Shown here piece after piece: positions 5,617-49,887 of a DNA stretch of 64,000 nt. Position numbers and translations under genes: made by a program. A model generated the notes under the pieces. It searched no databases. It saw only the letters and a list, made by a program, of their open reading frames with translations, and was not told the DNA's origin. Source of the DNA: Candidatus Omnitrophota bacterium (GTDB taxonomy: Bacteria > Omnitrophota > Gorgyraeia > Duberdicusellales > 4484-171); the NCBI GenBank assembly GCA_021735655.1, contig JAIPGM010000003.1, positions 128,001 through 192,000 on the forward strand. The letters run 5' to 3'. How positions within the stretch are numbered: position 1 is the first letter of the stretch; every line of letters starts with the position of its first letter.

Positions 5617-5628
5617 ATTTAAAAAACA

Positions 5629-12919: not shown

Positions 12920-12920
12920 A

Positions 12921-13628
12921 ATGAAGTTAAAGATAATTTTTGATAAAGAATCAGTAAATAGTAATTGTGTTGGTGGTTGGGGGGTTGCTTATTTGATTGA
13001 TGATAAGATTTTATTTGATACTGCTGAGAAGGCAGAGTATTTAATTACTAATTTAAAGGCCTTAGCTGTAGATATCGTCGGTATTGAAAAGGTAGTTATT
13101 TCTCATAATCATTGGGATCATCGTGCTGGACTTACGAGTTTGCTTGAGCTTAATAAAAAAATAGAAGTTTTTGCCTGCTCTGATTTTATAGATGAGTTCG
13201 GAAAAGAACTTTTTGGATATAATTTAAAATTGGTCGAGGCCCCGCTTCAGATAGCTAACAATGTATATACCAGCGGATGCTTGTCAGTCAACTATAAAGG
13301 TAGTAAGATAAAAGAACAGGCTTTGGTTTTGAGTGGCGAAAAGGGTATCTCTCTTGTTTCTGGTTGTTCTCATCCGGGGGTTTTAGCTTTAATTAATAGG
13401 GCTAAAGAGATTTTTCCTGAAAAAAGGTTTTATTCTTTAGTTGGCGGGCTTCATCTTATGGATGAGGACGAACGGTCGATCAACTACATTGTAGATGAGG
13501 TTAAAGGAGCTGGGGTAGAGAATATTATTCCTGGGCATTGTACGGGATTTAATGCAGTTAAGGTTTTTCAAAAGGTATATCAGGAACATTTTTTTGATTT
13601 GAAAATTGGTCAAGAAATTGAACTATAG
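12921..13628 (+). CDS. MBL-fold metallo-hydrolase
   Basis: HNHWDHRAGL (HxHxDH) metallo-beta-lactamase motif. Start placed at the ATG 2 nt after the yggS stop. Confidence 0.7.
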   Translation: MKLKIIFDKESVNSNCVGGWGVAYLIDDKILFDTAEKAEYLITNLKALAVDIVGIEKVVISHNHWDHRAGLTSLLELNKKIEVFACSDFIDEFGKELFGYNLKLVEAPLQIANNVYTSGCLSVNYKGSKIKEQALVLSGEKGISLVSGCSHPGVLALINRAKEIFPEKRFYSLVGGLHLMDEDERSINYIVDEVKGAGVENIIPGHCTGFNAVKVFQKVYQEHFFDLKIGQEIEL

Positions 13629-24818: not shown

Positions 24819-25169
24819 ATGGCTGAATATCCGGGCTCAGAAAGAAGGAAATTCCCTCGGTTAGATGCAAACTTTGTCATTAGCTATCGGATTAAAGAAG
24901 TGGTTGATGGCTATGATCTTACCCAGTCAAAGAATGTAAGTCAGGGGGGCATACTCTTAACTACCAATAGGTTGTTTAACAGGGGTACAATTTTAGCAAT
25001 GACTATACGTTTTCCGCTTATTCCTCAGAAAATTGATGTTACTGGCGAGGTTATTGATTCTAGAGAGGTGGTACGAGATTTAATTTATGAGACTAGAATA
25101 AAATTTCTAGATTTAGATGAAGAGTTTTTTCAAAAGTTAGGTGAGTTCATCCGGGAAAATTTAAAATGA
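24819..25169 (+). CDS. PilZ-domain protein (c-di-GMP binding)
   Basis: RRKFPRLD (RxxxR) and DLTQSKNVSQGG (D.S..GG) PilZ signature motifs. 116 aa. AAGGAGG RBS. Confidence 0.7.
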   Translation: MAEYPGSERRKFPRLDANFVISYRIKEVVDGYDLTQSKNVSQGGILLTTNRLFNRGTILAMTIRFPLIPQKIDVTGEVIDSREVVRDLIYETRIKFLDLDEEFFQKLGEFIRENLK

Positions 25170-35189: not shown

Positions 35190-36038
35190 TTGCTTAGATT
35201 AGGTGTTCACGTATCAATTGCCGGTAAGATCTATAAGTCTGTAGATAGGGCAGCGGAATTAGGTTGCAACACCATGCAGATTTTTTCCCGTAGCCCCCGA
35301 CAATGGCGCAAAACCGATATTAGTCAGGAAGATGCTGATATATTTAAAAAAAGAGCAAAGGAAAAAAATATCAGCCCAATCGTTGTTCATATACCTTATA
35401 CGCTTAACTTAGCTTCTTGCCGACAATCATTTCATAAAATTACGATAAAAGATTTTATCGCTGATCTTCTTGAAGTTGATAAATTAGGGGCCGATTATCT
35501 TGTAACTCATATGGGTTCATATAAGGGTGGAACCGAACTCGGTGGCCTTTCACGCATAGTTAATGCTTTGAAGAAAATACTTAAAGAGACTAAAGGGGTT
35601 AAAACTATGGTTCTTCTTGAAAATACTTCAGGCTCTGGTAGTTGGCTAGGCTATAAATTTTCTCATCAAAAGTTTATCTTTGATGAACTTAGTCATACCA
35701 AGCGTGTTGGCTTGTGTCTAGATACTGCTCATGCCTGGGCTGCTGGATATAAAATAAACGATGCTGTTGGCCTTAGTGGATTATTGAGGGAGATTGACCG
35801 GGAAGTTGGCCTTGAGCGAGTAAAAGTAATTCATATTAATGATACCTTAGAAGAATTAGATTCACGTCACGATCGTCATTTTGCAATCGGTGAGGGAAAA
35901 ATCGGTAAAAGGGGATTTAGTTTGATACTAAATCATCCTAAGTTGAAAGATATTCCGTTTATCTTAGAGACTCCGAGGAAAGATGAAGGTGATGATCAGA
36001 AAAATATAAAGATGGTGCGGCAATTGTATAAAGGTTAG
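35190..36038 (+). CDS. nfo: deoxyribonuclease IV (endonuclease IV, AP endonuclease family 2)
   Basis: MLRLGVHVSIAG…GCNTMQIF…SPRQW N-terminus and xylose-isomerase-like TIM-barrel pattern with conserved H/D/E metal ligands. Confidence 0.85.
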   Translation: MLRLGVHVSIAGKIYKSVDRAAELGCNTMQIFSRSPRQWRKTDISQEDADIFKKRAKEKNISPIVVHIPYTLNLASCRQSFHKITIKDFIADLLEVDKLGADYLVTHMGSYKGGTELGGLSRIVNALKKILKETKGVKTMVLLENTSGSGSWLGYKFSHQKFIFDELSHTKRVGLCLDTAHAWAAGYKINDAVGLSGLLREIDREVGLERVKVIHINDTLEELDSRHDRHFAIGEGKIGKRGFSLILNHPKLKDIPFILETPRKDEGDDQKNIKMVRQLYKG

Positions 36039-36057: not shown

Positions 36058-38511
36058 ATGAATTACAATAAGAAGATTGATAAAAAATGGCAAAATAAAT
36101 GGATAAAGCAGGGAATTTTTTCTGTAGATAATAAAGACTCAGCAAAACCTAAATATTACTGCCTGGTAATGTTTCCTTATCCATCGAGTGAACTCCATGT
36201 TGGTCATGCCCGAAACTATGTAATTGGCGACGCTGTTGGTCGCTATAAAAGAATGCAGGGGCTTGGTGTTCTTTCTCCGATGGGTTGGGATGCTTTTGGG
36301 CTGCCGGCTGAGAATCAGGCAATTAAACATAAGATTCATCCCAAGACCTGGACTTTTAAAAATATTAAGCGGATAAAGGAGCAATTGGCAAGTTGGGGGG
36401 TAGGCTATGATTGGCCACGAGAAATCGCAACTTGTGATCCGGAATATTATAAGTGGACCCAGTGGCTTTTTTTGAGGTTATATAAAAAAGGTTTAGCCTA
36501 TCGCAAAGAAGCCCCGGTTAACTGGTGCGAATCTTGTAAAACCGTTTTAGCTAATGAACAGGTAACTAACGGAAAGTGTGAGCGTTGTTCAAATGAGGTT
36601 AACCAGAAAAATTTAGAGCAATGGTTTTTTAAAATTACTGACTATGCTGACCGTCTTTTAGATGATTTAAAACTTTTAGAACAGTGGCCGGAGCGGGTAA
36701 GAACGATGCAGGATAACTGGATTGGTAAGTCTTTCGGTGCTGAGATTAACTTTCCGGTTGAAAATTCAGAACTTAAGTTTAACTGTTTTACTACTCGAGC
36801 CGACACTATCTTTGGGGCAACTTTTTTGGGTTTAAGTTGGGGCCATCCTTATGTGGTTGAGTTAATAAAAGATCTTGCCAATAAAGACGAGATTGAAGCT
36901 TTTATTGAAAAGGTAAAAAAGCAACCTCAGTCAGCTCGTCTAATAGATAATTTTGAAAAGGAAGGAGTTTTTACCGGAAAGTTCGCAATTAATCCGATGA
37001 CCGGTGAAAAGATACCGATTTGGATTGCTAATTATATTCTTTCCGGATATGGAACCGGAGCAATCATGTGCGTTCCGGCTCATGATTCAAGAGACTTGGA
37101 ATTTGCTAAGAAGTATAGCCTACCGATTGTTGAAGTCATTGAAGCCGAAGATAAACAAAAGCGCCTTAGCATAAGCCAAGAAGCTTACGAAGGGGAAGGG
37201 TCTTTAATTAATTCGGGAAAGTTTGATCGCCTAGGCTCGGAAGAAGCTAAAGAGCAAATCGTTGATTTTATGGAAAATAACAATATTGGGAAAAGGTCGG
37301 TTAATTATAAGCTTAGGGATTGGCTGGTGTCGCGTCAGCGTTATTGGGGGGCACCGATTCCGATTATTTATTGTGAGGCTTGCGGTGAGGTTGCAGTGGA
37401 GGATAAAGATTTACCGGTTCTTTTACCGGAAGTAAAAGAGTTCTTACCTACTGGGCAATCTCCTTTAACTTATATTGATAAGTTTATTAAGGTTAAATGT
37501 CCTAAATGTGGTAAGCCAGCTCGTAGGGAAACCGATACCATGGATACCTTTGTGGATTCTAGTTGGTACTATTTACGTTACATATCGCCTAAAGAGAAAA
37601 AAACAGCTTTTGTAAGTAATGATGTAAATAAGTGGCTACCGGTAGATCAATATATCGGAGGGGTAGAGCATGCAATTTTACATTTGATGTATTCGCGTTT
37701 TATTAATAAGTTTCTTCAAGATGAGGGGCTGATAGATTTTTCTGAGCCATTTAAGCGTTTGTTTACTCAAGGCATGATTGTGAAAGATGGCAATAAGATG
37801 TCTAAGTCCAAGGGTAATGTGGTTGCTCCTGATTATATTATTGATAAGTACGGAGCCGATACCATGCGGCTTTACATTCTTTTTATCGGCCCGCCGGAGA
37901 AAGATGCCGAATGGCAGGATGAGGGATTGCTCGGCGCTTGGCGGTTCATTCAAAGGTCATTAAAGTTGGTTGATATGTTTAAGGAGTGTTCAAAAGAAGA
38001 TAACCATGAGCCAAATAATCAAGAAAAGGCTTTACTCAGAAAAGTACATTCAACGATTAAAGAAGTTACCAAGGACTTAGAGGGAAATTTTCAATTTAAT
38101 ACGGCTATTTCAAAAATTATGGAGTTAGTGAACCAGGCCTATAAGGGTATTAGCGAGGCAGCCTTAAGTAAGGATATTTTAAGGCAAACTGTTGATACGG
38201 TGTTTTTGCTTTTATCTCCTTTTACTCCGCACATCAGTGAAGAGGTTAATGAAATTCTTGGCAATAAAGAGTCTGTTTTGAAGCGTTCTTGGCCGGTAGT
38301 CAAAGAAGAGTATTTAAAGCAAGCTGAGGTTGAGATCGCAGTTTCAATAAATGGTAAGGTGAAGGATAGATTAAAGATAGATGTTAATTGGTCTAAGGAA
38401 GAAGTTGAAGTTAAAGCCTTAGCCTTAGAGAAGATAAAAAAATCACTACAAGAAAAACCGCCCAAGAAAGTCGTCTACATCGATAAGAGAATTGTTAATA
38501 TTGTGGTTTAA
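36058..38511 (+). CDS. leuS: leucine--tRNA ligase
   Basis: HVGHARNY (HIGH), KMSKSKGN, and editing and anticodon-binding domains. 817 aa. Confidence 0.95.
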   Translation: MNYNKKIDKKWQNKWIKQGIFSVDNKDSAKPKYYCLVMFPYPSSELHVGHARNYVIGDAVGRYKRMQGLGVLSPMGWDAFGLPAENQAIKHKIHPKTWTFKNIKRIKEQLASWGVGYDWPREIATCDPEYYKWTQWLFLRLYKKGLAYRKEAPVNWCESCKTVLANEQVTNGKCERCSNEVNQKNLEQWFFKITDYADRLLDDLKLLEQWPERVRTMQDNWIGKSFGAEINFPVENSELKFNCFTTRADTIFGATFLGLSWGHPYVVELIKDLANKDEIEAFIEKVKKQPQSARLIDNFEKEGVFTGKFAINPMTGEKIPIWIANYILSGYGTGAIMCVPAHDSRDLEFAKKYSLPIVEVIEAEDKQKRLSISQEAYEGEGSLINSGKFDRLGSEEAKEQIVDFMENNNIGKRSVNYKLRDWLVSRQRYWGAPIPIIYCEACGEVAVEDKDLPVLLPEVKEFLPTGQSPLTYIDKFIKVKCPKCGKPARRETDTMDTFVDSSWYYLRYISPKEKKTAFVSNDVNKWLPVDQYIGGVEHAILHLMYSRFINKFLQDEGLIDFSEPFKRLFTQGMIVKDGNKMSKSKGNVVAPDYIIDKYGADTMRLYILFIGPPEKDAEWQDEGLLGAWRFIQRSLKLVDMFKECSKEDNHEPNNQEKALLRKVHSTIKEVTKDLEGNFQFNTAISKIMELVNQAYKGISEAALSKDILRQTVDTVFLLLSPFTPHISEEVNEILGNKESVLKRSWPVVKEEYLKQAEVEIAVSINGKVKDRLKIDVNWSKEEVEVKALALEKIKKSLQEKPPKKVVYIDKRIVNIVV

Positions 38512-38587
38512 CTTTTCTTTGATGACAAAATCACCATATTATACGAACTTCGTATTTGCTGCTATTATGGACATTTTACGAAACAAT

Positions 38588-38609
38588 ATTATAAGGAAAA
38601 ACCTTATAA
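38588..38609 (+). promoter_or_regulatory. inverted repeat TTATAAGG-n5-CCTTATAA overlapping a TATAAT -10 box upstream of the pilin gene
   Basis: Perfect 8-bp arms at 38588-38595 and 38601-38608. TATAAT at 38604-38609. A second palindrome, ATACGAA-c-TTCGTAT, lies at about 38551-38565. Confidence 0.3.
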
Positions 38610-38716
38610 TTGGTTATATTATTATGATAAAATGGCAACAATAGAATAAATAATTTAAGCAATTAGGTAGTTCGTCTGTTAATTGTTAGATATAAAATAA
38701 AGAAATGAGGAGAAAA

Positions 38717-39310
38717 ATGAAAAAAGTATTTACCTTGATCGAACTAATTGTAGTCATCGCTATCATCGCAATTTTAGCTGCTATCATTGCTCCCAATGCC
38801 TTTAAGGCCATTGAAAAAGCGAAGGTATCTGAAGCAATTGGAGATTTTAAAGCATATAAAACCGCGGCCTATAGTTTATATGCTGATACTGGTAAATGGG
38901 TTATGGAGGGTGCGGGTATTGAGTCTACTCCTGCTGGTGTATGTTGTTTTTTATTCTTGGAATCCGATAATAATGATTTATCTGTAGACCTTACTGGCTG
39001 GGTTGGTTGGGATGGACCATACATTGAGAAAATTAAATCAGAGCACCCTTGGGGAGGTTGGTATGCTTTTCAAAGTTGGGACGCTGGTAGAGGCCCAGAG
39101 GTAGATATGTGGGTTGATTTCGAAGATGATTGTTATCAAATTCCTAAAGATTGGGGAAACGGTGGCTGTCCTGTGCCATTAAAGGCTCAACTGAAAATTG
39201 ACAGCATGGTTGATGACGGGGATCTTACGAATGGAAGTATCTTAGATGGCCCATCTACAAATCAGGTAGAAGGCGATCTAAGTTGGATTTTGGTTTGGGA
39301 TGCTTTATAG
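38717..39310 (+). CDS. type IV pilin / pseudopilin (prepilin-type N-terminal methylation domain), non-canonical Val at -1
   Basis: GAGGAG RBS then MKKV|FTLIELIVVIAIIAILAAII. The FTLIE class III signal is present but the residue before Phe is Val (gta), not Gly. Paralog of 5053..5616. An upstream in-frame ATG at 38705 is unlikely because it lies within the RBS. Confidence 0.7.
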   Translation: MKKVFTLIELIVVIAIIAILAAIIAPNAFKAIEKAKVSEAIGDFKAYKTAAYSLYADTGKWVMEGAGIESTPAGVCCFLFLESDNNDLSVDLTGWVGWDGPYIEKIKSEHPWGGWYAFQSWDAGRGPEVDMWVDFEDDCYQIPKDWGNGGCPVPLKAQLKIDSMVDDGDLTNGSILDGPSTNQVEGDLSWILVWDAL

Positions 39311-39447
39311 TTTCAACCAAATGGAGACAGAGTTGATAGTTTTCTGATAAAATTATCTAACAAGTTGATCCACCTGGGCGTCTCAGTAGGTGGATATTTT
39401 TGCGTTATGAATATAAAAATTAACAAAAAGCAAGAAAGGAGGTAGTT

Positions 39448-39840
39448 ATGGATCAATCAAACGTATCATCAGGACAAGTTGGGGGTCAGAAAGAATCGCA
39501 GCACAATATCAGCATCCCAGTGTATCTTATTTTAACTCTTCTGTCTTGTGGGTTCTTCAATATTTATTGGAATTATCGACAGATGGAGGCTTGTAATGAT
39601 TTGTTAGGCAAGAAAGAGTTTGATTTTTGGCTTTGGTTTCTTCTTACGATTGTTACTTGCGGGATTTATCATATTTTTTATCAATACAAAATGGGATCAG
39701 CTATCGTTGAGATTCAACACAATAAAAATAAGGTCGTATTTGATAACTTGCCGATTATCAGTGTGCTGGTAACTATTTTTGGTATGACCGTAATAGTTGA
39801 TTGCATACATCAAAGTGAGATCAATAAGATAGTTAGCTAA
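39448..39840 (+). CDS. DUF4234-like small membrane protein
   Basis: Two copies of a TM segment carrying the (S/T)CG(F/I)(F/Y)..Y(W/F).Y motif (LSCGFFNIYWNY and VTCGIYHIFYQY). Confidence 0.45.
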   Translation: MDQSNVSSGQVGGQKESQHNISIPVYLILTLLSCGFFNIYWNYRQMEACNDLLGKKEFDFWLWFLLTIVTCGIYHIFYQYKMGSAIVEIQHNKNKVVFDNLPIISVLVTIFGMTVIVDCIHQSEINKIVS

Positions 39841-39848
39841 TTAATAAG

Positions 39849-40235
39849 ATGCAGAGCAAGACCCAGGCGTCTAGATATGTTCTCCGGGCGCTCATTGGTT
39901 CTATTTTTTTGATCGTTGTTCTTTCTGGTGTTTGTTTTTTCTTTTTTGGAATAGACCTCAAAGAACATCTTTCGTATTTGCCTTTGTGCCCTTTTCGGGC
40001 GATTACCAAAATTCCTTGTCCCGGTTGCGGCATGACTCATGCTTTTTTGGACATCGGACAATTTAAAATTAAAGAGGCGATCACCTACAATCCTTTTTCA
40101 GTACCTTTATTTTGTTTAATGGCAATTTACTTATTCTTTGGGCGTATTCCTTTATGGCTGAAACATAAGCGTTTAGTTTATTTAGCAGTAGTTAGCGTTT
40201 TAGTGGTTTGGGTATTAGGTTTGGTAGCAAGCTAA
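39849..40235 (+). CDS. DUF2752-domain membrane protein
   Basis: CPFRAITKIPCPGCGMTHAF (CP…CPGCG.T) signature flanked by TM helices. Confidence 0.6.
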   Translation: MQSKTQASRYVLRALIGSIFLIVVLSGVCFFFFGIDLKEHLSYLPLCPFRAITKIPCPGCGMTHAFLDIGQFKIKEAITYNPFSVPLFCLMAIYLFFGRIPLWLKHKRLVYLAVVSVLVVWVLGLVAS

Positions 40236-40274
40236 AGGTTTAGTCAATCCAATTTAATTTATTTAGCAATAACT

Positions 40275-40625
40275 ATGTTTTGCCTTACTCCTCAAGAAAG
40301 AAAGGTTATTTTTTTAATCGCTGGTTTGATTTTGTTGGGTGGTATTTTAAGATTTTTAAATACTGACAAAATAAATAAAATATTTTTAGAGAATGCCAGT
40401 AAAACTTCTGCTGAGGAAGCTAGTGGTCGGCAAATACTGATCAATATTAATAAGGCTGACAGAGGACAACTTGAGCTTTTGCCGGGTATTGGTACGGTAA
40501 CCGCAGAAAGAATTATTAATTACCGTTCTGATTACGGTATTTTTAAAAGTTTCGAAGATTTAGAAAAAGTTAAAGGAATCGGAAGCGAAAAGGCTAAAAA
40601 TTTGGCCGAGTTAATTGTTTTTTAA
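40275..40625 (+). CDS. comEA: competence protein ComEA (helix-hairpin-helix DNA receptor)
   Basis: N-terminal TM anchor. C-terminal tandem HhH (ININKA…LELLPGIG…AERII.YR…G.F.S.EDL.KVKGIG.). Confidence 0.8.
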   Translation: MFCLTPQERKVIFLIAGLILLGGILRFLNTDKINKIFLENASKTSAEEASGRQILININKADRGQLELLPGIGTVTAERIINYRSDYGIFKSFEDLEKVKGIGSEKAKNLAELIVF

Positions 40626-40638
40626 GAGTTAAGTCATT

Positions 40639-42075
40639 GTGGTAAATATAAATTATGGTTCTTTTTTTAATTTTTTTCTTTTTATTTTTTTTGCCTTAGG
40701 TATCATAGTTAGCGCATTTTTTCCATCATTCTTGACCTCCCTTTGTTGTTTTTTTGTTGTAAGTTTTTTTAGCTATTTTTTTTATCGGAGAAATCGACGG
40801 TTTCTTTCTGATATCTTAATTTTGGTTATCTTTTTTGTTCTTGGAGGTATTTGGTATCTGGCTAATTCGCATCATCAACCGGAATCCCTTTTAAATAAAG
40901 ATAAGCGATTTGTTCTTAAGGTAATATCTTTACCTAAAAATACAAAATTGCGCAGTAGTTTCGCTGCCGAGATAGATCAAGCAGACGGTCATCCCTTTAG
41001 ACAAACTTTAAGAGTTTATGATTATACGAAGTCTTTGGAATACTTAAATAGTTATGAGGTTTTGGGTAAGTTAACCAGAAGGAGCTATCATGATCGCTGG
41101 TTTTATTATCTTTGGATAAAGTCTAAAGCTAGGATAAATGAGCTTTCTTTGAATCCCTGGGACAAGTTTGTTAAAGGGACTAGCCTGTATATTCTTGATA
41201 TTTTTAGAAAGAATTCTACGGATCAGGCTTATCGGTTTCTGGCAGCGGTATTTTTAGGAAGAAGGGAGTTGCTGGGTGGCGAGCGTGAATTTTTCTCTCG
41301 GGCTGGAGCATCACATCTTTTGGCGATAAGTGGATTGCATGTTGGTCTTACCGCTTTAATTTTGTTTTCTTTCTTGGGATTCTTCGGCCTTTCTTTTAGG
41401 CTCCGTTTAGGAATTTCTTTAGTTTTTCTTTATCTTTATACTTTTTTGACCGGGGTCAGTCCGTCAACTTTACGGGCGGTTATTATGTACTCGGTATTTG
41501 CTTTTAGTTTTTTCTTAAAACGAAGACCACACTCTTTCAATTCTTTAGGTTTGGCCGGACTAATTTGTTTGTTAATAGATCCGGCAATGCTTTTTACAAT
41601 TGGCTTTCAACTATCTTTTATGGCAGTTTTTGCCATCCTTGTTGGTTATCGAATTTTTCCGGTTAAGTTAGTTGGCAGTCGAGCTCTGGTTTACTCTGGG
41701 CAGATTTTCTTTTGCTCTTTGTTTGTAAATGTATTTGTCACACCGTTAACCGCTTATTATTTCGGCAATATTAATACTTTGGGGATAGTCTATAATATTG
41801 TTTTGATTCCTTTTTTTACTTTTATTCTTACGATAAACTTCTTTTTAATTATATTGGCTCCAGTAAGTTTTATTGCTCAAAATTTAGGGGCTTTACTTTC
41901 ATTTCTTATTTTGATTTTTGTTTATTTGGTCCGGTTTTTAGGTTCTTTTAGCTTTTCTTATTTTAGCTGGCAATTTTCTCTAACCGGCGTGTTTGGCTAC
42001 TATTTTGTTCTGGCCGGGATTCTTGTGTTTTTCAAGCTCAAGAGTAGTCTCAAGCTCCAAAGTCCAGATAGTTAA
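40639..42075 (+). CDS. comEC: ComEC/Rec2 DNA-uptake channel, short form lacking C-terminal metallo-beta-lactamase domain
   Basis: DUF4131-like N-terminal region followed by the polytopic Competence domain (…FLAAVFLG.R…LSRAGASHLLAISGLHVG…). Ends at 478 aa with no HxHxDH domain. Confidence 0.75.
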   Translation: MVNINYGSFFNFFLFIFFALGIIVSAFFPSFLTSLCCFFVVSFFSYFFYRRNRRFLSDILILVIFFVLGGIWYLANSHHQPESLLNKDKRFVLKVISLPKNTKLRSSFAAEIDQADGHPFRQTLRVYDYTKSLEYLNSYEVLGKLTRRSYHDRWFYYLWIKSKARINELSLNPWDKFVKGTSLYILDIFRKNSTDQAYRFLAAVFLGRRELLGGEREFFSRAGASHLLAISGLHVGLTALILFSFLGFFGLSFRLRLGISLVFLYLYTFLTGVSPSTLRAVIMYSVFAFSFFLKRRPHSFNSLGLAGLICLLIDPAMLFTIGFQLSFMAVFAILVGYRIFPVKLVGSRALVYSGQIFFCSLFVNVFVTPLTAYYFGNINTLGIVYNIVLIPFFTFILTINFFLIILAPVSFIAQNLGALLSFLILIFVYLVRFLGSFSFSYFSWQFSLTGVFGYYFVLAGILVFFKLKSSLKLQSPDS

Positions 42076-42128
42076 GGGTTGATTAATGGTTTGACAAGAA
42101 TAGCCTCCTTTGATATAGTTTTTTATCA

Positions 42129-44114
42129 ATGAAGAAGGCCATTTTTCTTTTAATTCTACTTACCTTTTCTTGGTCGGTTTACCCTTTTTGGGTTTGGTCT
42201 CCTAAGACTCAGAAGTGGAAGAACCCTAAATATTCAGCCCTTTCCACTCCTTACCTTCAGTATAAAGCAGCTTTAAAGATTTTTGAAGAAGGACGCTACA
42301 AGGAAGCCCATAAGGAATTTAAGAAATTCTTAGCTCACTATCCTGATGCTAAAGAAGCGGCTGAAAGCCAATATTACCTGGGTAGATGCCTTGAGAAGTT
42401 TGATAAGTCTTATGAGGCCTTTTTAGTTTATCAAAAACTAATCGATTCTTATCCTAATAGCCAGCGGATTAACGAAGTAATTGAGAGGGAGTACAATATT
42501 GGTGAGTCCTTTTTGAATCGTGAACATAAGAAATGGCTGGGTTTGTCATTGTATGATTTTGTAGAGCATCCTTCGATATTAATTTTTAATAGTTTGGTCA
42601 ATAAGGCTCCTTATTCAGAATATGCGCCGCGAGCTCAATATAAGCTGGGGATCATTCTTTTTGAATTAGGCCGGTTTGACGAAGCTCGAGATGCTTTTCA
42701 GAAGGTAGTTGATAATTATTCTGATACTGAATGGGCTCCTCCGGCAAAGTATCAATTAGCTATAGCGACTTCGAAGGCCTTTCCGGGGGCCGACTATGAT
42801 TCTTCTTACTTACAGGAGGCTACTGCCAGGCTTGATGAGTTTATTAAAGAACATCCTGAAGCTAAGATTTCCGATCAGGCTGAGGATCAACTGAAGATTT
42901 TAAGGAACCGAGAAGCTAAAAAGAACTTTGAGATAGCTCAATTTTATGAAAATCAGGATCAATATGAAAGTGCGGTGATTTATTATCGTAAAGTCCTTGA
43001 TGAGTATATTGATAGTGATTATTATGATAGTTCTTTAGAGAAGGTTCAGGAGTTGAATCAGTTAATCGAAGGAAACTTGACTAAGAAAGATTTAATCTTA
43101 AGCCATAAAAAAGAAGCAGCTCAAACTAAGAAGGCAGAGAAGATTAGGGCAAAGGATAGAAAAAAGGACAACAAACAGGAGCTTCGACAGAATAAAATAG
43201 ATACAAAAAAGAGAATTCGACAGGAAGCAAAGATATCCAAAGAGCTTCGTCGTAAGGAAAAGCTTGCGCTTAAGTCTGAGGCCAGAGCTAAAAAAGAAAT
43301 AGCTAGGGCTAAGAAGTTAAGAGAGAAGCAGGATCGGGCACAGGAGAAGAAGAACCGTGCCAAAGAGAGACGCGAGGAAAAACTTGCCCGAAAGAATGAG
43401 GCTAAGGCGAAAAAACAGGCCCTAAGAGCTAAAGAGTTAAAAAAGAGGGAAGCTCCGACACAGGGAAAAAAAGAGTTGGTTGAAGAAAAAAGTAAGGAAA
43501 AGTTTGTTGAATTAGAATCGGCTAAAGCCAAGAAGGTACCTTTAAAGAGTCCAAAGCTAAAAAAGAAACAAGATCAGCGAGAACGAAAGCAGGCTCTTCT
43601 TGCCGAGAAGCGACAAAGAAAAATTGAGCGTAAAGCTCAAAAAAGAGCTAAAAAAGAATTTACTCGAATTAAAAAGTTAAAGAAAAAAGAAGAGCTTATC
43701 CAGAAAAAGAAAGATTCAATTGCAGCTAAGCAAAAAGCAAAGCTTGATCGGAGCAACGAAGCTAAAGCGAGGAAGGAAGCAGCCAGAGAAGAGAAACTAA
43801 GACAGAAAGCAGAACGCTTAAAAGATAAACAAGCTCTTATTGAAAAAAAGCGAGCCGAAAAATTAGCTCGTCGAATTGAAGCTAAAGTTAGAAAAGAGGC
43901 GATTAGGGAAAAGAAGTTAAAGGCCAAGCAGGAATGTATTCAAAAAGCAAAGCAGATTAAAGCCCAAAAGCGTCAAGAGAAGCTAATTAAAAAACAAAAA
44001 GCTAAAGCTAAAAAAATGGCACTTAAGGAAAAAAAGCGTAAAGAAAAATTAGCTAAAGAAAGTCGGACTGAGCCTAAAGTAGAAGCTCAAGATAAGGAGA
44101 CAGAAAATGATTAA
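42129..44114 (+). CDS. BamD (YfiO)-like TPR outer-membrane assembly factor fused to a ~350-aa Lys/Glu/Arg/Ala-rich low-complexity tail
   Basis: Residues 1-300 match BamD architecture (signal peptide, …YP.S.YA..AQY.LG…YSDTEWAP.A.YQLA…YY.K…). Residues ~310-661 are near-pure K/E/R/A with repeated AKAKK / EKLARK units. Confidence 0.65.
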   Translation: MKKAIFLLILLTFSWSVYPFWVWSPKTQKWKNPKYSALSTPYLQYKAALKIFEEGRYKEAHKEFKKFLAHYPDAKEAAESQYYLGRCLEKFDKSYEAFLVYQKLIDSYPNSQRINEVIEREYNIGESFLNREHKKWLGLSLYDFVEHPSILIFNSLVNKAPYSEYAPRAQYKLGIILFELGRFDEARDAFQKVVDNYSDTEWAPPAKYQLAIATSKAFPGADYDSSYLQEATARLDEFIKEHPEAKISDQAEDQLKILRNREAKKNFEIAQFYENQDQYESAVIYYRKVLDEYIDSDYYDSSLEKVQELNQLIEGNLTKKDLILSHKKEAAQTKKAEKIRAKDRKKDNKQELRQNKIDTKKRIRQEAKISKELRRKEKLALKSEARAKKEIARAKKLREKQDRAQEKKNRAKERREEKLARKNEAKAKKQALRAKELKKREAPTQGKKELVEEKSKEKFVELESAKAKKVPLKSPKLKKKQDQRERKQALLAEKRQRKIERKAQKRAKKEFTRIKKLKKKEELIQKKKDSIAAKQKAKLDRSNEAKARKEAAREEKLRQKAERLKDKQALIEKKRAEKLARRIEAKVRKEAIREKKLKAKQECIQKAKQIKAQKRQEKLIKKQKAKAKKMALKEKKRKEKLAKESRTEPKVEAQDKETEND

Positions 44115-44622
44115 ATTATTAATTCTAGCTGTATTTTTTTTAAGTTCTGGATGCGGTTATACTACTCGAGGTTCTATTTATGCCGGGAAAAAAATAATGG
44201 TTCGGCCGGTAATTAATACCATTGATGTAACTTCTCTGAGTGAAAGAACATCGGGGTATGTTAATTTTCCTATTTTGATTGAAAATAAATTAACTAATGA
44301 GATAGTAAGTAAATTTAACAATGATGGCCAACTTAAGGTAGTCAGTCAGGATCAACAGGCGCTTACACTTACTTGTTCAGTGGATAGTTACACCAAACAG
44401 ACTTTGCGTTATGAAGAGGCTAATGATGGCGAGGTGAAGGAGCAACGCTTGAGGCTGCATACACACATCAAGCTTACCTCAGCCACAGGTGAAGTATTAA
44501 TTGAAGAAGATGTTGTTGGTGAGACCGAGTATCTTGTTTCCGGAAGTGAGACCACAGCCCAAATCGCTTTAGTAAGCGATACAGCGCGAAGAATTTCCGA
44601 AGCGGTTTTGGAGCAATGGTGA
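44107..44622 (+). CDS. lptE: LptE-like LPS-assembly lipoprotein
   Basis: Lipobox LSSGCGYTTRG resembles the LptE AGCGWHLR start. 171 aa. 8-nt overlap with the upstream BamD-like gene. Followed by a holA-like ORF, as in the E. coli leuS-lptE-holA block. Confidence 0.5.
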   Translation: MIKLLILAVFFLSSGCGYTTRGSIYAGKKIMVRPVINTIDVTSLSERTSGYVNFPILIENKLTNEIVSKFNNDGQLKVVSQDQQALTLTCSVDSYTKQTLRYEEANDGEVKEQRLRLHTHIKLTSATGEVLIEEDVVGETEYLVSGSETTAQIALVSDTARRISEAVLEQW

Positions 44623-44685: not shown

Positions 44686-45378
44686 ATGAAAGTTAGAGAA
44701 AGACTTTTTTTAATTTCCGGTGGTAACTTCGACCAGCGACAACGTACACTCAGTGGTATAAAGAAAAGGTTATTTAAGGAGAAGGATTCCCCTTTAGATA
44801 CTTTTACTTTTTATGGGAAAGAGGTAGAGTTGAAGGGTTTAAATGACAAGCTGCTCACTGCTTCCTTTGGTCAGCGGAGGATGATTATTTTTAGAAATTT
44901 TCATCAGTTGGCATCTCCGGTGAGAAAGTTTATTTTTAAAAATATAAAGAGGATTCTTCTTGCGAATTATGTTGTTTTTGACAGCGATAAGGAGTATTAT
45001 CAGCTACAAAGAGATAAACGGTTTATGTCAGATAGTTTATTTACCTTGGCTATAAAGCAAGCTGCGGTATATAAGGTTAGTCCGGTAAAAAAAGATTTTT
45101 CGTTTCAGGATTTAATGAGTAGCTTGCGAAAGAATGATTTAAATAGTTCGCTTTATATTATTGAGAGTCTTTTTCGTTCCGGTAGCAACGCACACATGCT
45201 GGGCCCGCAAATCATTGGTGTATTGGTTCATAAATGTTCCGGTTTTAGTAATCCGCGGAGAGAGATTTGTCTAGAATATTTATGGGAGGCTGACCGAGCG
45301 CTTAAAGAAAAAGGAGTTGATAGTCGTCTGGCTATTGAAACTCTGTTAGTGAAGATATTTACCCCTTCAGCTGGTTGA
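44686..45378 (+). CDS. possible DNA polymerase III delta subunit (HolA)-like protein, short
   Basis: Weak N-terminal resemblance to HolA (LFLISG.N…, …ASFGQRRMIIF). Position after lptE matches E. coli synteny. Only 230 aa. Confidence 0.35.
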   Translation: MKVRERLFLISGGNFDQRQRTLSGIKKRLFKEKDSPLDTFTFYGKEVELKGLNDKLLTASFGQRRMIIFRNFHQLASPVRKFIFKNIKRILLANYVVFDSDKEYYQLQRDKRFMSDSLFTLAIKQAAVYKVSPVKKDFSFQDLMSSLRKNDLNSSLYIIESLFRSGSNAHMLGPQIIGVLVHKCSGFSNPRREICLEYLWEADRALKEKGVDSRLAIETLLVKIFTPSAG

Positions 45379-45669
45379 GGATTTTTTCTTAGCTGAAGTT
45401 GTTTTTTTAGTCGAAGGATTGACGAGCTTTGATAGACGTGATTTCTTATTGGCTGCCTTGTTTTTGTGAATAACATTACTTGAAACAGCCTTATCCAAAA
45501 GCTTGCATATTTTTTCTAGTGCTTTGGCGCGTGCTTTTGAGTCTTTTTCTTCAAGGCTTTTTTTAAGCGTTTTTAAGGCAACCCTAATGTTACGCTTTAC
45601 AGCAAGGTTCCGATGGTAGCGTTTTTTGCTTTGTCGTAAATCCTTTTTTGCAGCTCTTCTTTGTGGCAT
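45367..45669 (-). CDS. rpsT: 30S ribosomal protein S20
   Basis: MPQRRAAKKDLRQSKKRYHRN…HKNKAA… bS20 pattern. Lys-rich C-terminal extension. Confidence 0.85.
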   Translation of the reverse strand: MPQRRAAKKDLRQSKKRYHRNLAVKRNIRVALKTLKKSLEEKDSKARAKALEKICKLLDKAVSSNVIHKNKAANKKSRLSKLVNPSTKKTTSAKKKSSTS

Positions 45670-45741: not shown

Positions 45742-47277
45742 ATGCGTAGTAAAATTATTAAAAATACTTATATTTTAGGAACGGGAACTTTGATTTCTCG
45801 TATTTTAGGCTTTGTTCGGGATATCTTGATAGCTAGCTTTTTTGGAACTTCTGGATTGCTTGAGGCCTTTCTTGTCTCTTTTCGTCTACCGAATATATTT
45901 AGGAGTGTATTTGCTGAGGGTTTTTCAGATTCGGTAGCGACTCCGGTGTTGAGTGAATATCAAGAGGATCATCAGCAGATTTTTAAGCTGGGGAACCATT
46001 TACTTTCATTGTTTTGTGTTATTTTGCTTATTTGCACCATTCTTGGTATCATTTTTGCTAAATTTTTAGTCATGCTGATTGCTCCTGGCTTCATTAGCCA
46101 AGTTTTCAAATTTAATCTGGCTGTATCGTTTACTAGAATTACTTTTATCTATCTTTTTTTGATCGGCCTATCATCAGTAATGGTATCTGTTCTTTACTCA
46201 CTAAAGAAATTTTTTATCCCAGCAATTAACCCGATTTTTTTGAATATCTCGTTTATTTTAGGAATAGTTTTTTTTAGTCAATCTTTAAAAAATTATATTC
46301 TGATTATCTGCGTTATAGTTGCTGGAATTTTACAGTTGATATTTCCTTATTTTTCACTAAGAAGGCAAGGCTTTAGGTTCCGCTTTAGTTTCGCTGAGGC
46401 CTTGAAAAATGCGGCAGTCTTGCGAATGTTTAAGCTTTTTATTCCGCGAGCATGGTCGAGTATCGTTTATCATTTAAGTGTATTTATTGATACCATTTTT
46501 TCTTCATTGACAGTAATTGTTGGTTCGGGGGCTCTAGCCTCGGTTTATTACGCTAACCGGTTGATCCAATTTCCTTTTGCTATTATCGCTCTTTCAATAT
46601 CGCGGGTGGCAATCGTTGATCTTTCTTCTTATCATAGTCAGGGAAAATCCGAAGATTTCAAGGAACTTTTTGTTTTCTCTTTTCAGAACATCATTTTTTT
46701 TATTATACCGCTTTCAGTTATTTTTTTGTTTATTCCTGAAGCGATTATAAACATTATTTTTACTAGAGGGGCTTTTGACTCTTATTCATTGGCAATGACC
46801 TCTTCAGTCCTTTTTTTCTACTCTTTTGGATTATTTTTCTTTTGTGGTATCAAACTTTTGGTTAATTCGTTTTATTCTTTAAAGGATACTGTTCTGCCGG
46901 CGAAAACAGCTACTTTTTCACTTATCGTAAATGTAATCTTGAGTTCGATTCTTATGTTTCCTCTAAAGATTGGCGGTGTAGCCTTAGGCAGTAGTTTAGC
47001 GGCTATTTGTAATTTTTTCTTGTTGTATTATTTTTTTAAAAAAAGAATTGGTCCGATAGATTGGCAGGATACAAGATCTCAATTACTAAAGGTTTTGTCG
47101 CTTAGCCTAGTGGTCGGATTATTGGCGCGTTTTCTTTGGTATTATTCACCTTACAACAAGTATCTTAATGCTTTAGTGATAATCGTCGCTGTGGCGGTTG
47201 TTTTTTTTGGTGGTGGATACCTTGTTGGCTTAAGGCAGATTCGTCACCTAAAAGTATGGATATCCGCAAAAAAATAG
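45742..47277 (+). CDS. murJ: lipid II flippase MurJ (MviN)
   Basis: …GTLISRILGFVRDILIASFFG…AF.VSFRLPN.FR..FAEG… conserved MurJ N-terminus. ~14 TM. 511 aa. Confidence 0.85.
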   Translation: MRSKIIKNTYILGTGTLISRILGFVRDILIASFFGTSGLLEAFLVSFRLPNIFRSVFAEGFSDSVATPVLSEYQEDHQQIFKLGNHLLSLFCVILLICTILGIIFAKFLVMLIAPGFISQVFKFNLAVSFTRITFIYLFLIGLSSVMVSVLYSLKKFFIPAINPIFLNISFILGIVFFSQSLKNYILIICVIVAGILQLIFPYFSLRRQGFRFRFSFAEALKNAAVLRMFKLFIPRAWSSIVYHLSVFIDTIFSSLTVIVGSGALASVYYANRLIQFPFAIIALSISRVAIVDLSSYHSQGKSEDFKELFVFSFQNIIFFIIPLSVIFLFIPEAIINIIFTRGAFDSYSLAMTSSVLFFYSFGLFFFCGIKLLVNSFYSLKDTVLPAKTATFSLIVNVILSSILMFPLKIGGVALGSSLAAICNFFLLYYFFKKRIGPIDWQDTRSQLLKVLSLSLVVGLLARFLWYYSPYNKYLNALVIIVAVAVVFFGGGYLVGLRQIRHLKVWISAKK

Positions 47278-48473
47278 AGAAGTTGACTTTAGGTCCTGGT
47301 GTATATATTATGAAATCGGCCAACGGTGAAGTTTTCTATATCGGTAAAGCCTCTTCAATAAAAAAACGCATCATGAGTCATTTCTCTCGATCAGAATCTA
47401 AAAATAGTAATTTTCTTGGTGAGGTTTGTGATATTGAATGTATAGAATGCACAACCCCCGAGCAGGCATTAATTTTGGAGGCAGCCTTAATTAAAGAAAG
47501 AAAACCTAAATATAACATTGCTTTGCGTGATAACAAAAGCTATCCTTACGTAGCGGTTAGCAAAGATGATTTTCCGCGCATTTTTATCACTCGCCCTAAG
47601 ACAAAGTCGCCAGCAATTCTTTTTGGTCCTTATCCAGCGGCCAAAACCTTAAAGTCAGCTTTAGAGTCAATACGAAAAGTGTTTCCTTTTCGTTCTTGCT
47701 CAAGGTTACCTAAGACAGCTTGTCTTTTTTTTCATCTTAAACTTTGTTCGGCGCCCTGTGAAGGGAAGATTGTTTCTAGGGAGTACAAGGAAATCATTAG
47801 CAATGCTACAAAAATATTAAACGGTGAGCGAAGGCAGTTAACACAAAACTTAAAGGTAAAGATGAAGCGTTTAGCTGACAAGCAAAAGTTTGAACAAGCT
47901 GCCAAAATTAGAAATATTATTATAGCTATTGATAGTCTTTATGAGGGTAGGCCTAAAGCTCATGAAACAATTTCTTTAAAAGAGACTTTGGGCTTGGCTA
48001 AGCTCCCTTTATACTTAGAGGCTATTGATATATCTTCTTTGGGTGCTAGTGAGGCCACTGGTTCAGTAGTCGTCTTCAAGGATGGGTTGCCGGATAAAGG
48101 GAGCTATCGTCGTTTTCTAATAAGGGAAGTTAAGGGCAAGGATGACTATGCAATGATTGCTGAGGTAGTTAAGCGGCGTTACTCCAGATTAATAAGAGAA
48201 AAGAAGTCCTTACCGGATTTAGTTGTCATTGATGGAGGTAGGGGGCATGTAGGAATTGCCCAGAAGGTGTTTTCAAGCTTAGGTATTTCTATAGCCGTAA
48301 TCGGCATAGCTAAGAAAAATGAAGAGGTTTGGTTTGCCGACAGAAGAGTTTCTTTATCAATAGCTAAAGATCAGCCTTGTTTACATCTTCTACAGCGGAT
48401 AAGAGATGAGGCCCATAGATTTGCCCATAGCTATCAGCTTCATCGTAGAAAAGGAAAGGTTTTTAAGAAATGA
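47256..48473 (+). CDS. uvrC: UvrC-family excinuclease, short form lacking the C-terminal (HhH)2 domain
   Basis: N-terminal GIY-YIG (GVYIM…GEVFYIGKA…R…H), Cys-rich CLFFHLKLCSAPCEG, a UVR helix, then the C-terminal endonuclease core (VIDGGRGH…IAKK.E…LLQRIRDEAHRFA). The ORF stops at 405 aa with no HhH tail. Confidence 0.75.
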   Translation: MDIRKKIEKLTLGPGVYIMKSANGEVFYIGKASSIKKRIMSHFSRSESKNSNFLGEVCDIECIECTTPEQALILEAALIKERKPKYNIALRDNKSYPYVAVSKDDFPRIFITRPKTKSPAILFGPYPAAKTLKSALESIRKVFPFRSCSRLPKTACLFFHLKLCSAPCEGKIVSREYKEIISNATKILNGERRQLTQNLKVKMKRLADKQKFEQAAKIRNIIIAIDSLYEGRPKAHETISLKETLGLAKLPLYLEAIDISSLGASEATGSVVVFKDGLPDKGSYRRFLIREVKGKDDYAMIAEVVKRRYSRLIREKKSLPDLVVIDGGRGHVGIAQKVFSSLGISIAVIGIAKKNEEVWFADRRVSLSIAKDQPCLHLLQRIRDEAHRFAHSYQLHRRKGKVFKK

Positions 48474-48739
48474 CTAATTTTGAGAAAAAGGTGTTACGGA
48501 TAGTTTCAAAGATACCTTTGGGCCAGGTGCGTAGCTATAAATGGGTAGCTATAAAGACCGGTCGCCCTAAGGCTTATCGGGCAGTAGCCAATGCTCTTAG
48601 GAAAAATCCTTATCCTTTGTTTGTTCCTTGTCATCGGGTAGTTAAATCATCGAATCAGGCCGGCGGGTATTCCTTGGGAAGCGACCTTAAGGTAAACTTA
48701 ATAAATTTAGAGAAAAAAATTAAAGATATGGTAAAATAA
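48470..48739 (+). CDS. ogt: methylated-DNA--protein-cysteine methyltransferase (Ogt/MGMT C-terminal domain, standalone)
   Basis: …IPLGQVRSY..VA…G…RAV..AL..NP…VPCHRVV…G…GY… with the PCHRV active-site Cys motif. 89 aa. Confidence 0.75.
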   Translation: MTNFEKKVLRIVSKIPLGQVRSYKWVAIKTGRPKAYRAVANALRKNPYPLFVPCHRVVKSSNQAGGYSLGSDLKVNLINLEKKIKDMVK

Positions 48740-48810
48740 TAAATACAGATATGAGGAAAGACTAATTATTCAAATTGTAAAAATTAAAGATTTTACTTAG
48801 GAGGTAAAAG

Positions 48811-49887
48811 ATGGATTTTAAAAATATTTTAGAGTTGATGATTGAGAAAAGCGCTACCGATATTTTCTTGCGAGTAGGTAGTCCTTTACGTGGCAGGATT
48901 AATACTGAAGTTGAAGTCCTCAGGGAAGATAGATTTACTTTTGATGAAATTAAACAGATTATCGAAATGATTACTAGGGAGCGAGACCGGGAAAGGTTAG
49001 AGAAACACCGAGGTTGCGAATTTACTTATTGGTATCGAGAGTATTGGCGTTTTCGGGTCGGTATATTTTATCAACGAAACACTCCGGCCTTGGTCGTGCG
49101 TAAAATTGACTTAAGAATACCTTCATTTCTAGAACTTAATTTGCCTTCGGCGGTGTTAGAAAATTTCTGCACCGAGCGAAGAGGGTTGATTTTGCTTACC
49201 GGTATTACCGGAAGTGGTAAATCAACAACGATCGCCAGCATGATTCAATTTATCAATAATAACTATGGGCGTCATATACTCACGGTTGAGGAACCGGTCG
49301 AATTTACTTTTCAGGATGACAAATCAGTGGTTAATCAAAGGGAGATTGGAACTGATGTTGAGAGTTATCATGATGCTCTCAGGCAGTTTGCTTTACATTC
49401 ACCGGACGTTATGTATATTGGTAATATCCTTGATGCTGAAACATGTCATGCGGCACTCACTGCCGCTGAAACCGGAGTTTTGGTTTTGTCTACGCTTCAT
49501 ACGGTGAATGCTACTTCTACTATAGAGAGGATTGTGAACTTTTTCCATCCTCATCAGCATGCCTTTGTTATGAATCAGCTTTCTTTTCTGCTCAAAGGAG
49601 TTCTTTCTCAGCGCTTGATTCCTCGTGCTGACAATTTGGGAATGATTCCAGCCTATGAAGTTATGACTCTTAGCCCATCGGTATCCCGACTTATAAAGGA
49701 GAACAAAATTTGGGAAATTCCTAAATATATTGCTTCTGGTGAGCATTACGGAATGATGAGTTTTCAACAATGTTTGTTGAAATTTGTCGAGGAAGGAAAA
49801 GTAACTGCAGATCATGCCTTACAGTTTTCCGATACCCGCGAAGAGTTAGAGCTGCTAATGCGTAATAAGGGATTAATAAAGGATTAA
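48811..49887 (+). CDS. pilT: type IV pilus retraction ATPase PilT
   Basis: Walker A GITGSGKST, Asp/His boxes and AIRNLIRE-like LIKENKI motif typical of PilT/PilU. 358 aa. Confidence 0.85.
   Translation: MDFKNILELMIEKSATDIFLRVGSPLRGRINTEVEVLREDRFTFDEIKQIIEMITRERDRERLEKHRGCEFTYWYREYWRFRVGIFYQRNTPALVVRKIDLRIPSFLELNLPSAVLENFCTERRGLILLTGITGSGKSTTIASMIQFINNNYGRHILTVEEPVEFTFQDDKSVVNQREIGTDVESYHDALRQFALHSPDVMYIGNILDAETCHAALTAAETGVLVLSTLHTVNATSTIERIVNFFHPHQHAFVMNQLSFLLKGVLSQRLIPRADNLGMIPAYEVMTLSPSVSRLIKENKIWEIPKYIASGEHYGMMSFQQCLLKFVEEGKVTADHALQFSDTREELELLMRNKGLIKD

Follow-up and report, generated by a model that had tools for sequence, protein, structure and literature searches.

In Escherichia coli K-12, leuS is followed directly by lptE, holA and nadD (b0642-b0639), with nothing between leuS and lptE and with lptE and holA overlapping, and the gene for ComEC (ycaI) adjoins msbA-lpxK. 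A second described arrangement, of the Bacillus type, runs comEA-(comEB)-comEC-holA-rpsT, with rpsT on the opposite strand. Elements of both are found in a 64,000-nucleotide stretch of a Candidatus Omnitrophota genome (assembly GCA_021735655.1, contig JAIPGM010000003.1, positions 128,001 to 192,000), hereafter the window, in which a pilin-like gene, two genes for small membrane proteins, comEA, a short comEC and a bamD-like gene stand between leuS and an lptE-like gene. A preliminary description of the window, which correctly gave the E. coli order as leuS-lptE-holA, regarded these genes as a block inserted into that order. Comparison with relatives indicates instead that comEA-comEC-bamD-lptE-holA behind leuS is very probably the standard Omnitrophota order and not an inserted competence island, the apparent insertion arising because E. 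coli was used as the reference.

ComEC proteins are known to differ in domain content. Of 51 naturally competent strains, 14 have the profile of DUF4131 plus Competence ('DC'), and among proteins with a Competence domain only 52% also have Lactamase_B (Pimentel & Zhang 2018, PMC6299819), while a 2025 study calls the competence of ComEC variants without the metallo-beta-lactamase (MBL) domain and/or the oligonucleotide-binding (OB) fold an open question (PMC12455585). For Omnitrophota, the phylum survey of Seymour et al. reports mostly ultra-small cells with host-dependent traits, and finds that in every class most genomes have type IVa pilus genes, which are interpreted as attachment devices; competence is not mentioned there (PMC10066038).

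Gene order across Omnitrophota

Ten independent Omnitrophota loci were compared, gathered by looking up five gene contexts and scanning Genome Taxonomy Database (GTDB) species genomes, their ComEC proteins being 33-67% identical to that of the window; three come from chromosome-level metagenome-assembled genome (MAG) assemblies (CP070807, CP070684, CP070797). All ten loci have the order comEA-comEC-bamD-lptE-holA-like-rpsT(-)-murJ-uvrC-ogt-prfB-secA, where (-) marks the opposite strand, and in every one of them comEA lies directly 5' of comEC. The pair nfo-leuS is found immediately upstream of comEA in nine of the ten, and pilT is found between ogt and prfB in nine, missing only from the locus L002. 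Packing is tight, with comEA starting 6-55 bp past leuS and bamD, lptE and holA overlapping by 4-8 nt in most relatives. The region is thus likely to be a core leading-strand housekeeping part of the chromosome with the ancestral order nfo-leuS-comEA-comEC-bamD-lptE-holA-rpsT(-)-murJ-uvrC-ogt-pilT-prfB-secA, to which only about 1.7 kb has been added, in the spacer between leuS and comEA. In the papers searched there is no description of the leuS-comEA-comEC-bamD-lptE-holA synteny in Omnitrophota.

Such a comparison of gene order in relatives had been proposed in the preliminary description as the check on its own reading, with an ancestral order named as the outcome that speaks against insertion, and an order ancestral for the phylum is what the loci display, comEA-comEC-bamD-lptE-holA-rpsT(-) being kept in all ten, down to 33% ComEC identity. 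The closeness of pilT, which had been taken as a sign of a DNA-uptake apparatus, loses that meaning, as pilT belongs to this conserved layout too. The gene inventory itself holds: every named open reading frame (ORF), from the pilin, DUF4234, DUF2752, comEA and comEC to the BamD-like, LptE and HolA-like genes, was found in place, with Pfam and NCBIfam profile matches in agreement with its label, and the stretch separating leuS from lptE, given as about 5.6 kb, measures 5,595 bp. The positions given for pilT, 4 kb downstream, and for another pilin-like gene, at 5 kb, hold as well. The features are as follows, with profile matches in brackets.

35190-36038: nfo, upstream of leuS (TIGR00587, 255 bits)
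36058-38511, + strand: leuS, upstream anchor of the conserved string, preceded by nfo
38512-40274, no strand: variable slot between leuS and comEA, the sole lineage-specific part of the block
38705-39310, + strand: pilin-like gene, an orphan GspG-like type IV pilin or pseudopilin paralog (N_methyl, E 3.6e-6; GspG N-terminal match)
39448-39840, + strand: small membrane protein of the DUF4234 family, whose gene opens a two-gene cassette (PF14018, E 3e-15)
39849-40235, + strand: small membrane protein of the DUF2752 family carrying a CPGCG motif, whose gene closes the cassette (PF10825, E 1e-17)
40275-40625, + strand: comEA (HHH_3, E 5e-17, 62.3 bits against a cut-off of 27)
40639-42075, + strand: comEC, 478 amino acids (aa) (PF03772 Competence, 169 bits, E 1.8e-49; no Lactamase_B)
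42091-42119, + strand: promoter-like site TTGACA-17-TATAGT with TG upstream, in the spacer between comEC and bamD, matching 11 of 12 consensus positions
42129-44114, + strand: bamD (YfiO)-like tetratricopeptide repeat (TPR) gene (TIGR03302, 92.8 bits against a cut-off of 81.4; PF13525, E 1.5e-15, 57.9 bits against 25)
44107-44622, + strand: lptE-like lipoprotein (PF04390, 32.7 bits against a cut-off of 23)
44686-45378, + strand: holA-like gene, 230 aa (TIGR01128, E 1.2e-9, 38 bits against a cut-off of 80)
45367-45669, - strand: rpsT (S20, E 1e-20), convergent with holA, the downstream anchor common with the Bacillota order
45742-49887, + strand: murJ, uvrC (short), ogt and pilT, continuing the conserved string
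48811-49887, + strand: pilT (TIGR01420, 365 bits against a cut-off of 319)
5053-5616, + strand: second pilin-like paralog (T2SSG, E 1e-4; GspG, E 1e-10; TTG start)

The three best of the predicted promoter-like sites in the 15 kb scanned all sit in spacers directly 5' of tRNA-Leu, bamD and rpsT, and the site at 42091-42119 may separate bamD-lptE-holA from comEA-comEC in the window. An Rfam scan of 34-50 kb found two tRNAs and nothing else. UvrC (47256-48473) is short at 405 aa, with GIY-YIG, UVR and RNase H-like endonuclease domains and no C-terminal helix-hairpin-helix (HhH) domain detected, and measures 406-412 aa in all relatives compared.

The slot between leuS and comEA

What varies between lineages is the gap between leuS and comEA. 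Seven lineages have 6-138 bp here, and L092, another relative from a metagenome, has 25 bp; the gap is wider in L005 (811 bp), the window (1763 bp) and L003 (2674 bp), the cargo differing in each:

window: pilin, DUF4234 and DUF2752
L003: pilin, two secreted proteins and a DUF4190 protein
L005: two small membrane proteins

Judged by absence from relatives, comEA, comEC and bamD do not behave as an island, all ten loci having them, and only the pilin, DUF4234 and DUF2752 genes (38512-40274) do. There is no shift in GC content, the block (38-45 kb) lying at 0.33-0.385 against 0.32-0.44 in 1-kb windows of the whole stretch, and around 38.5-40.3 kb there are neither meaningful repeats (direct or inverted) nor a neighbouring tRNA nor a recombinase or integrase gene. 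A second spacer of the string can also take cargo, as L011 has an extra gene for a 233-aa secreted protein (5537-6238) between comEC and bamD.

The pilin-like protein encoded at 38705 has a true pilin fold according to an AlphaFold2 (AF2) model built with 59 homologs (pLDDT 91, pTM 0.84), which shows a long N-terminal helix and a beta-sheet head; its best Foldseek match is Clostridioides difficile PilA1 (6t8s, E 1.5e-4, probability 1.0), with EpsG, PulG and TcpA also matched. It shares with GspG and the type IV major pilins, such as C. difficile PilA1, the class III N-terminal hydrophobic helix with Glu5 and the lollipop fold, and differs from them in a variable residue at position -1 and in its occurrence as orphan, multi-copy genes outside assembly operons. 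Glycine at -1 is the near-invariant canonical residue required by prepilin peptidases. In the window protein, Phe+1, Glu+5 and the hydrophobic helix are present and position -1 is Val. Among 117 family members the residue before FTLIE is Ser in 58, Gly in 36, Ala in 8, Val in 5 and Thr, Phe, Asn, Cys, His or Leu in 10, and the roughly 35 residues that follow this position are almost invariant. A disabling mutation or a sequencing error at -1 was rejected in view of the predominance of non-Gly residues in the family, a pattern which suggests either relaxed peptidase specificity or uncleaved pilins.

The family is very large: 909 homologs reach E<=1e-5, and one contig can carry several copies. 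The closest homologs of the 38705 pilin (66%, 58% and 53% identity) sit in other gene contexts, two of the three between eno-divIC and ompA-uppS-cdsA-dxr-rseP-ispG, one of these two loci having a single copy and the second a cluster of four or more. The paralog at 5053-5616 is 29% identical to the 38705 pilin (E 5e-10) and has a degenerate N-terminus, RLFELVVLL.

The two DUF genes of the slot recur elsewhere as a unit. The window DUF4234 protein is 47% identical to the product of an Elusimicrobiota gene that lies directly 5' of that genome's DUF2752 gene, and a word-indexed search gave 12 DUF2752 homologs, those with a named source being all non-Omnitrophota (Elusimicrobiota at 46%, then Armatimonadota and Acidobacteriota). 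DUF4234 is directly upstream of, or overlaps, DUF2752 in all three contexts retrieved, which are an Elusimicrobiota MAG, a contig carrying a protein that NCBI assigns to an Armatimonadota MAG, and an unclassified metagenome contig (L094 3679-4399, L095 3633-4417, L096 3604-4408). The flanks of the cassette in these three contexts are unrelated and hold no competence or pilus gene, and literature searches on DUF2752 and DUF4234 found nothing relevant. DUF4234-DUF2752 is, as far as gene context can tell, an autonomous conserved two-gene membrane-protein cassette recurring across phyla, and the pilin and the DUF pair appear to have independent histories, with neither tied to competence. The 5.6-kb block is accordingly made up of an orphan pilin paralog, an autonomous DUF cassette and the ancestral comEA-comEC and bamD-lptE(-holA). 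A PADLOC scan of the pilin, DUF4234, DUF2752 and BamD proteins gave no match.

The DNA-uptake pair and its surroundings

ComEA is of the short type, a membrane-anchored helix-hairpin-helix DNA receptor without an SLBB domain; the hydrophobic N-terminal stretch, read from the sequence as VIFLIAGLILLGGIL, precedes the HhH domain, and the full-length model TIGR01259 is matched with E 1e-17 and 63.7 bits, below its cut-off of 152. ComEC scores 101.7 bits against TIGR00360 (cut-off 36.5) and matches DUF4131 from Pfam with E 2e-6 and 28.2 bits, below the cut-off of 31.6, with precomputed PF13567 matches recorded for most homologs. In an AF2 model built with 29 homologs (pLDDT 86), three N-terminal transmembrane (TM) helices are followed by a beta-barrel (residues 88-169) and a helical bundle (173-473); the barrel resembles the OB folds of single-stranded DNA-binding proteins and the ComEC OB domain 9iew (probability 1.0, weak E-values). 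The absence of the MBL nuclease domain, reported already in the preliminary description, is borne out: the protein has no Lactamase_B match, and the modelled chain of 478 aa stops five residues past the last TM helix, at the end of the channel domain. Lactamase_B is likewise recorded in none of the 120 best ComEC homologs, which are mostly about 465-500 aa long (the shorter ones being truncated calls) and, wherever named, come from Omnitrophota, and an alignment spanning 40-63% identity holds 42 invariant columns, the HLLAISGLH block included. A ComEC of about 480 aa that combines OB fold and channel domain is thus a phylum-wide architecture, and one already known: it has the same domain profile as the 'DC' type and no architectural difference from it, the survey of that type making no mention of Omnitrophota (PMC6299819). 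Among the homologs is an NCBI protein of a 'Candidatus Omnitrophica bacterium' with 100% identity to the window ComEC.

The sole candidate for an MBL-fold protein in the window is a stand-alone ORF of 247 aa at 12885-13628 (Lactamase_B, E 1e-5). It was rejected as a split-off ComEC nuclease, scoring 19.8 bits to the MBL region of a ComEC model, with equally weak RNase Z and lactonase matches, and lying 27 kb away.

Of the type IV pilus-dependent competence set, ComEA, ComEC, PilT and pilin-like genes are present in the 64-kb window, and profile searches of it found no pilB, pilC, pilD, pilM-Q, comF or dprA. Relatives carry PilM and a secretin (L002). In that locus (CP070684, 1-5426) a cluster of pilM, secretin and an AAA_22 ATPase lies about 1-2 kb upstream of nfo-leuS-comEA-comEC, with two small genes between. 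The only other gene of the window with a Pfam family name referring to pili is a stand-alone PilZ-domain (c-di-GMP receptor) gene at 24819-25169, which adjoins tRNA-Pro and hom and is unrelated to the block. The DNA-uptake apparatus proposed in the preliminary description is therefore upheld in part: comEA-comEC is a real, conserved uptake pair with a pilin-like gene and pilT nearby, and the pieces do not make up one 'compact apparatus'.

BamD-like, LptE and HolA-like proteins

The BamD-like protein shares the TPR/YfiO domain of BamD/YfiO lipoproteins, above both NCBIfam and Pfam thresholds, but differs in having no lipobox cysteine, in an added repeat array and in translational coupling to lptE, the start of which overlaps the bamD stop by 8 nt. 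Its N-terminus in the window, MKKAIFLLILLTFSWSVYPFWVW, contains no Cys, and the lipobox cysteine is present only in L002, L010 and L012; the mature N-terminus, FW(I/V)WSPKTQKWKNP, is nonetheless strongly conserved though the cysteine is missing in the window and most relatives, and BamD may thus be without a lipid anchor in many Omnitrophota. The array occupies residues ~324-661 (nt ~43098-44114), a polycationic tail of 338 aa made of ~40-aa (22+18) repeats rich in Lys, Arg, Glu and Ala, with 135 K+R against 57 D+E (net +78). Autocorrelation at the protein level gives z 11.6 at offset 40 and 10.1 at offset 80, and Tandem Repeats Finder did not detect the repeats at the DNA level. Since the tail is absent in six Omnitrophota lineages and 145-338 aa long in five (window, L003, L005, L006, L012), it expands and contracts quickly. 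Speculatively, it could serve as a spacer or as a binder of polyanions such as DNA or lipopolysaccharide in the periplasm.

LptE has a signal peptide ending in LSSGC and a lipobox-like motif conserved as G-C-G-Y, and is kept in all ten lineages with 42 invariant columns in the alignment. Sequence-profile searches of the PDB with the LptE and HolA-like alignments gave nothing useful. The HolA-like protein is about 230 aa long across the phylum, against about 340 aa (three domains, ~320-350 aa) elsewhere. An hhalign comparison of 11 Omnitrophota orthologs with verified HolA proteins (E. coli and nine Bacillota) gave 92.4% probability and E 5e-7, over the N-terminal ~110 columns only; a custom HolA hidden Markov model detects seven of the ten other Omnitrophota orthologs (E 5e-10 to 1e-4) and not the window copy, and DNA_pol3_delta_C matches with E 0.009. 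The protein is a candidate DNA polymerase III delta subunit, and its place between lptE and rpsT would fit HolA.

Function and alternative explanations

By its domains, the uptake pair would work as follows. ComEA, anchored in the inner membrane, would use its HhH domain to bind double-stranded DNA arriving in the periplasm, and the periplasmic OB fold of ComEC would receive the DNA, one strand of which would pass through the channel domain. As this ComEC lacks the MBL domain, a separate nuclease would have to dispose of the other strand, and the same would apply to other 'DC'-type ComECs. The few base pairs between leuS and comEA and the bamD/lptE/holA overlaps in relatives suggest that comEA-comEC is probably expressed together with the housekeeping genes and not as a regulated competence island, with bamD-lptE (outer-membrane biogenesis) and the holA-like gene (replication) presumably linked to comEC by inheritance and not by function.

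Some observations weigh against the reading of the region as an ancestral housekeeping string with a small addition. The window and L003 both have a pilin in the slot just 5' of the comE genes, and a local functional link is possible in that clade; the predicted promoter-like site before bamD, together with a 193-bp AT-rich gap after leuS, means that the string may form several transcripts; and bamD-lptE beside comEC is seen only in Omnitrophota among about 80 loci, so the joining of the two neighbourhoods may be a phylum-level assembly and not a relic. One alternative is that an island of pilin, DUF4234, DUF2752, comEA, short comEC and bamD was inserted into an ancestral leuS-lptE-holA and forms, with pilT, a compact, dedicated transformation apparatus. 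The uninterrupted E. coli order and the presence and common orientation of all the named genes agree with such an insertion, which is hardly credible, however, with comEA-comEC-bamD between leuS and lptE in nine of ten Omnitrophota lineages and comEA-comEC-bamD-lptE in all ten, with the place of pilT between ogt and prfB also ancestral, with no break in composition and neither flanking repeats nor an integrase nor a neighbouring tRNA, with a pilin and a DUF pair of independent history, and with no pilus-assembly, dprA or comF gene in the window. A narrower proposal, in which the GspG-like pilin was recruited in the clade of the window and L003 to supply the major subunit of a DNA-uptake pseudopilus and is expressed along with receptor and channel, draws on the shared slot and orientation of the two pilins, the true type IV pilin fold of the AF2 model, the conserved pilT nearby and the frequency of type IVa pilus genes across Omnitrophota classes (PMC10066038). 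It is improbable all the same: in L005, which is just as closely related, the slot is occupied by unrelated small membrane proteins, the pilin family is highly multi-copy, a 137-bp gap and the unrelated DUF cassette part pilin from comEA, and the two slot pilins are 43% identical against 53-66% for homologs elsewhere, which suggests independent arrivals.

The remaining alternatives concern what the uptake pair does. The lack of a nuclease domain, and the statement that transformation by MBL-less or OB-less variants is an open question (PMC12455585), might make the short ComEC a decayed or repurposed relic, for instance a membrane protein with no role in DNA transport, but this is very improbable in view of a length and motifs, including the HLLAISGLH block, conserved phylum-wide, of confident AF2 models with an intact OB fold and channel, of the 14 of 51 known competent strains that share the architecture (PMC6299819) and of the constant pairing of comEC with comEA. 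A tentative idea, possible though on balance unlikely, is that the DNA imported by ComEA-ComEC serves these bacteria, ultra-small and possibly dependent on hosts, chiefly as a source of nucleotides or nutrients and not for recombination, a role proposed for other reduced-genome lineages. The genes are linked to housekeeping functions and apparently constitutive, with comEA a few bp past leuS in most lineages; purifying selection keeps the pair throughout the phylum, ComEC having 42 invariant columns; and Omnitrophota are mostly ultra-small with host-dependent traits (PMC10066038). On the other side, part of the account of Seymour et al. credits many Omnitrophota with relatively complete metabolisms (PMC10066038).

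With the region read as an ancestral string, what looked like an island relative to E. coli is the normal layout of the phylum, and it should not be taken to indicate a specialised or recently acquired transformation system. Omnitrophota universally keep comEA-comEC in a housekeeping string, which suggests constitutive DNA uptake in ultra-small bacteria, a trait that is not discussed in the phylum survey (PMC10066038). All components belong to known gene families in a conserved arrangement, and the finding is largely ordinary; more unusual than the arrangement itself are the polycationic repeat tail of BamD, the pilin family with non-Gly residues at -1 and the DUF4234-DUF2752 cassette.

Comparison with known gene neighbourhoods

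The genome scan also gave about 70 ComEC loci from phyla other than Omnitrophota. In 11 Bacillota loci and one locus of a Dictyoglomus MAG, holA (PF06144 + PF21694) lies directly 3' of comEC, and in one further Bacillota locus (L078) it is the second gene past comEC; rpsT was detected on the opposite strand just past holA in 10 of these loci. Among 150 other ComEC neighbours the recurrent families are aroA, ComEA, a ComEB-type deaminase, S20, HolA, LexA and LepA, and LptE, YfiO and LeuS are not among the 25 most frequent families listed. The gene aroA (EPSP synthase, ~417 aa) lies directly upstream of comEC in 10 loci, mostly of Desulfobacterota (among L019-L028 and L032), and about 4 kb upstream of ycaI in E. 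coli (L088), possibly another old ComEC neighbourhood.

Such overlaps raise the question of which order came first. That the Omnitrophota string leuS-comEA-comEC-bamD-lptE-holA-rpsT(-) preserves an ancient bacterial order, from which the Bacillota/Dictyoglomota and proteobacterial orders derived by loss or relocation of segments, is doubtful; if it were true, the genes for the DNA-uptake channel and for outer-membrane assembly would have been neighbours in an early diderm ancestor. A Halanaerobium locus (L064) has comEC followed directly by holA, and as Halanaerobium belongs to a diderm group of Bacillota, this counts against a simple account of the Bacillota order as a 'scar of outer-membrane loss'.

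With the Bacillus-type comEA-(comEB)-comEC-holA-rpsT(-), the Omnitrophota string shares comEA directly 5' of comEC, the downstream holA and the convergent rpsT. It differs in having bamD-lptE between comEC and holA, leuS in front and no comEB-like deaminase, as well as in the proteins themselves, with a ComEC without MBL, a ComEA without SLBB and a HolA of ~230 against ~340 aa. The proteobacterial leuS-lptE-holA(-nadD), in turn, has in common with it the order and orientation of leuS ... lptE-holA, with lptE and holA tightly packed or overlapping; in E. coli, by contrast, comEC is elsewhere, rpsT is not adjacent and nothing stands between leuS and lptE. Seen beside these two classic syntenies, which it joins through holA, the Omnitrophota string looks like a union, around that gene, of the comEA-comEC-holA-rpsT and leuS-lptE-holA neighbourhoods, to which bamD is an addition typical of the phylum.

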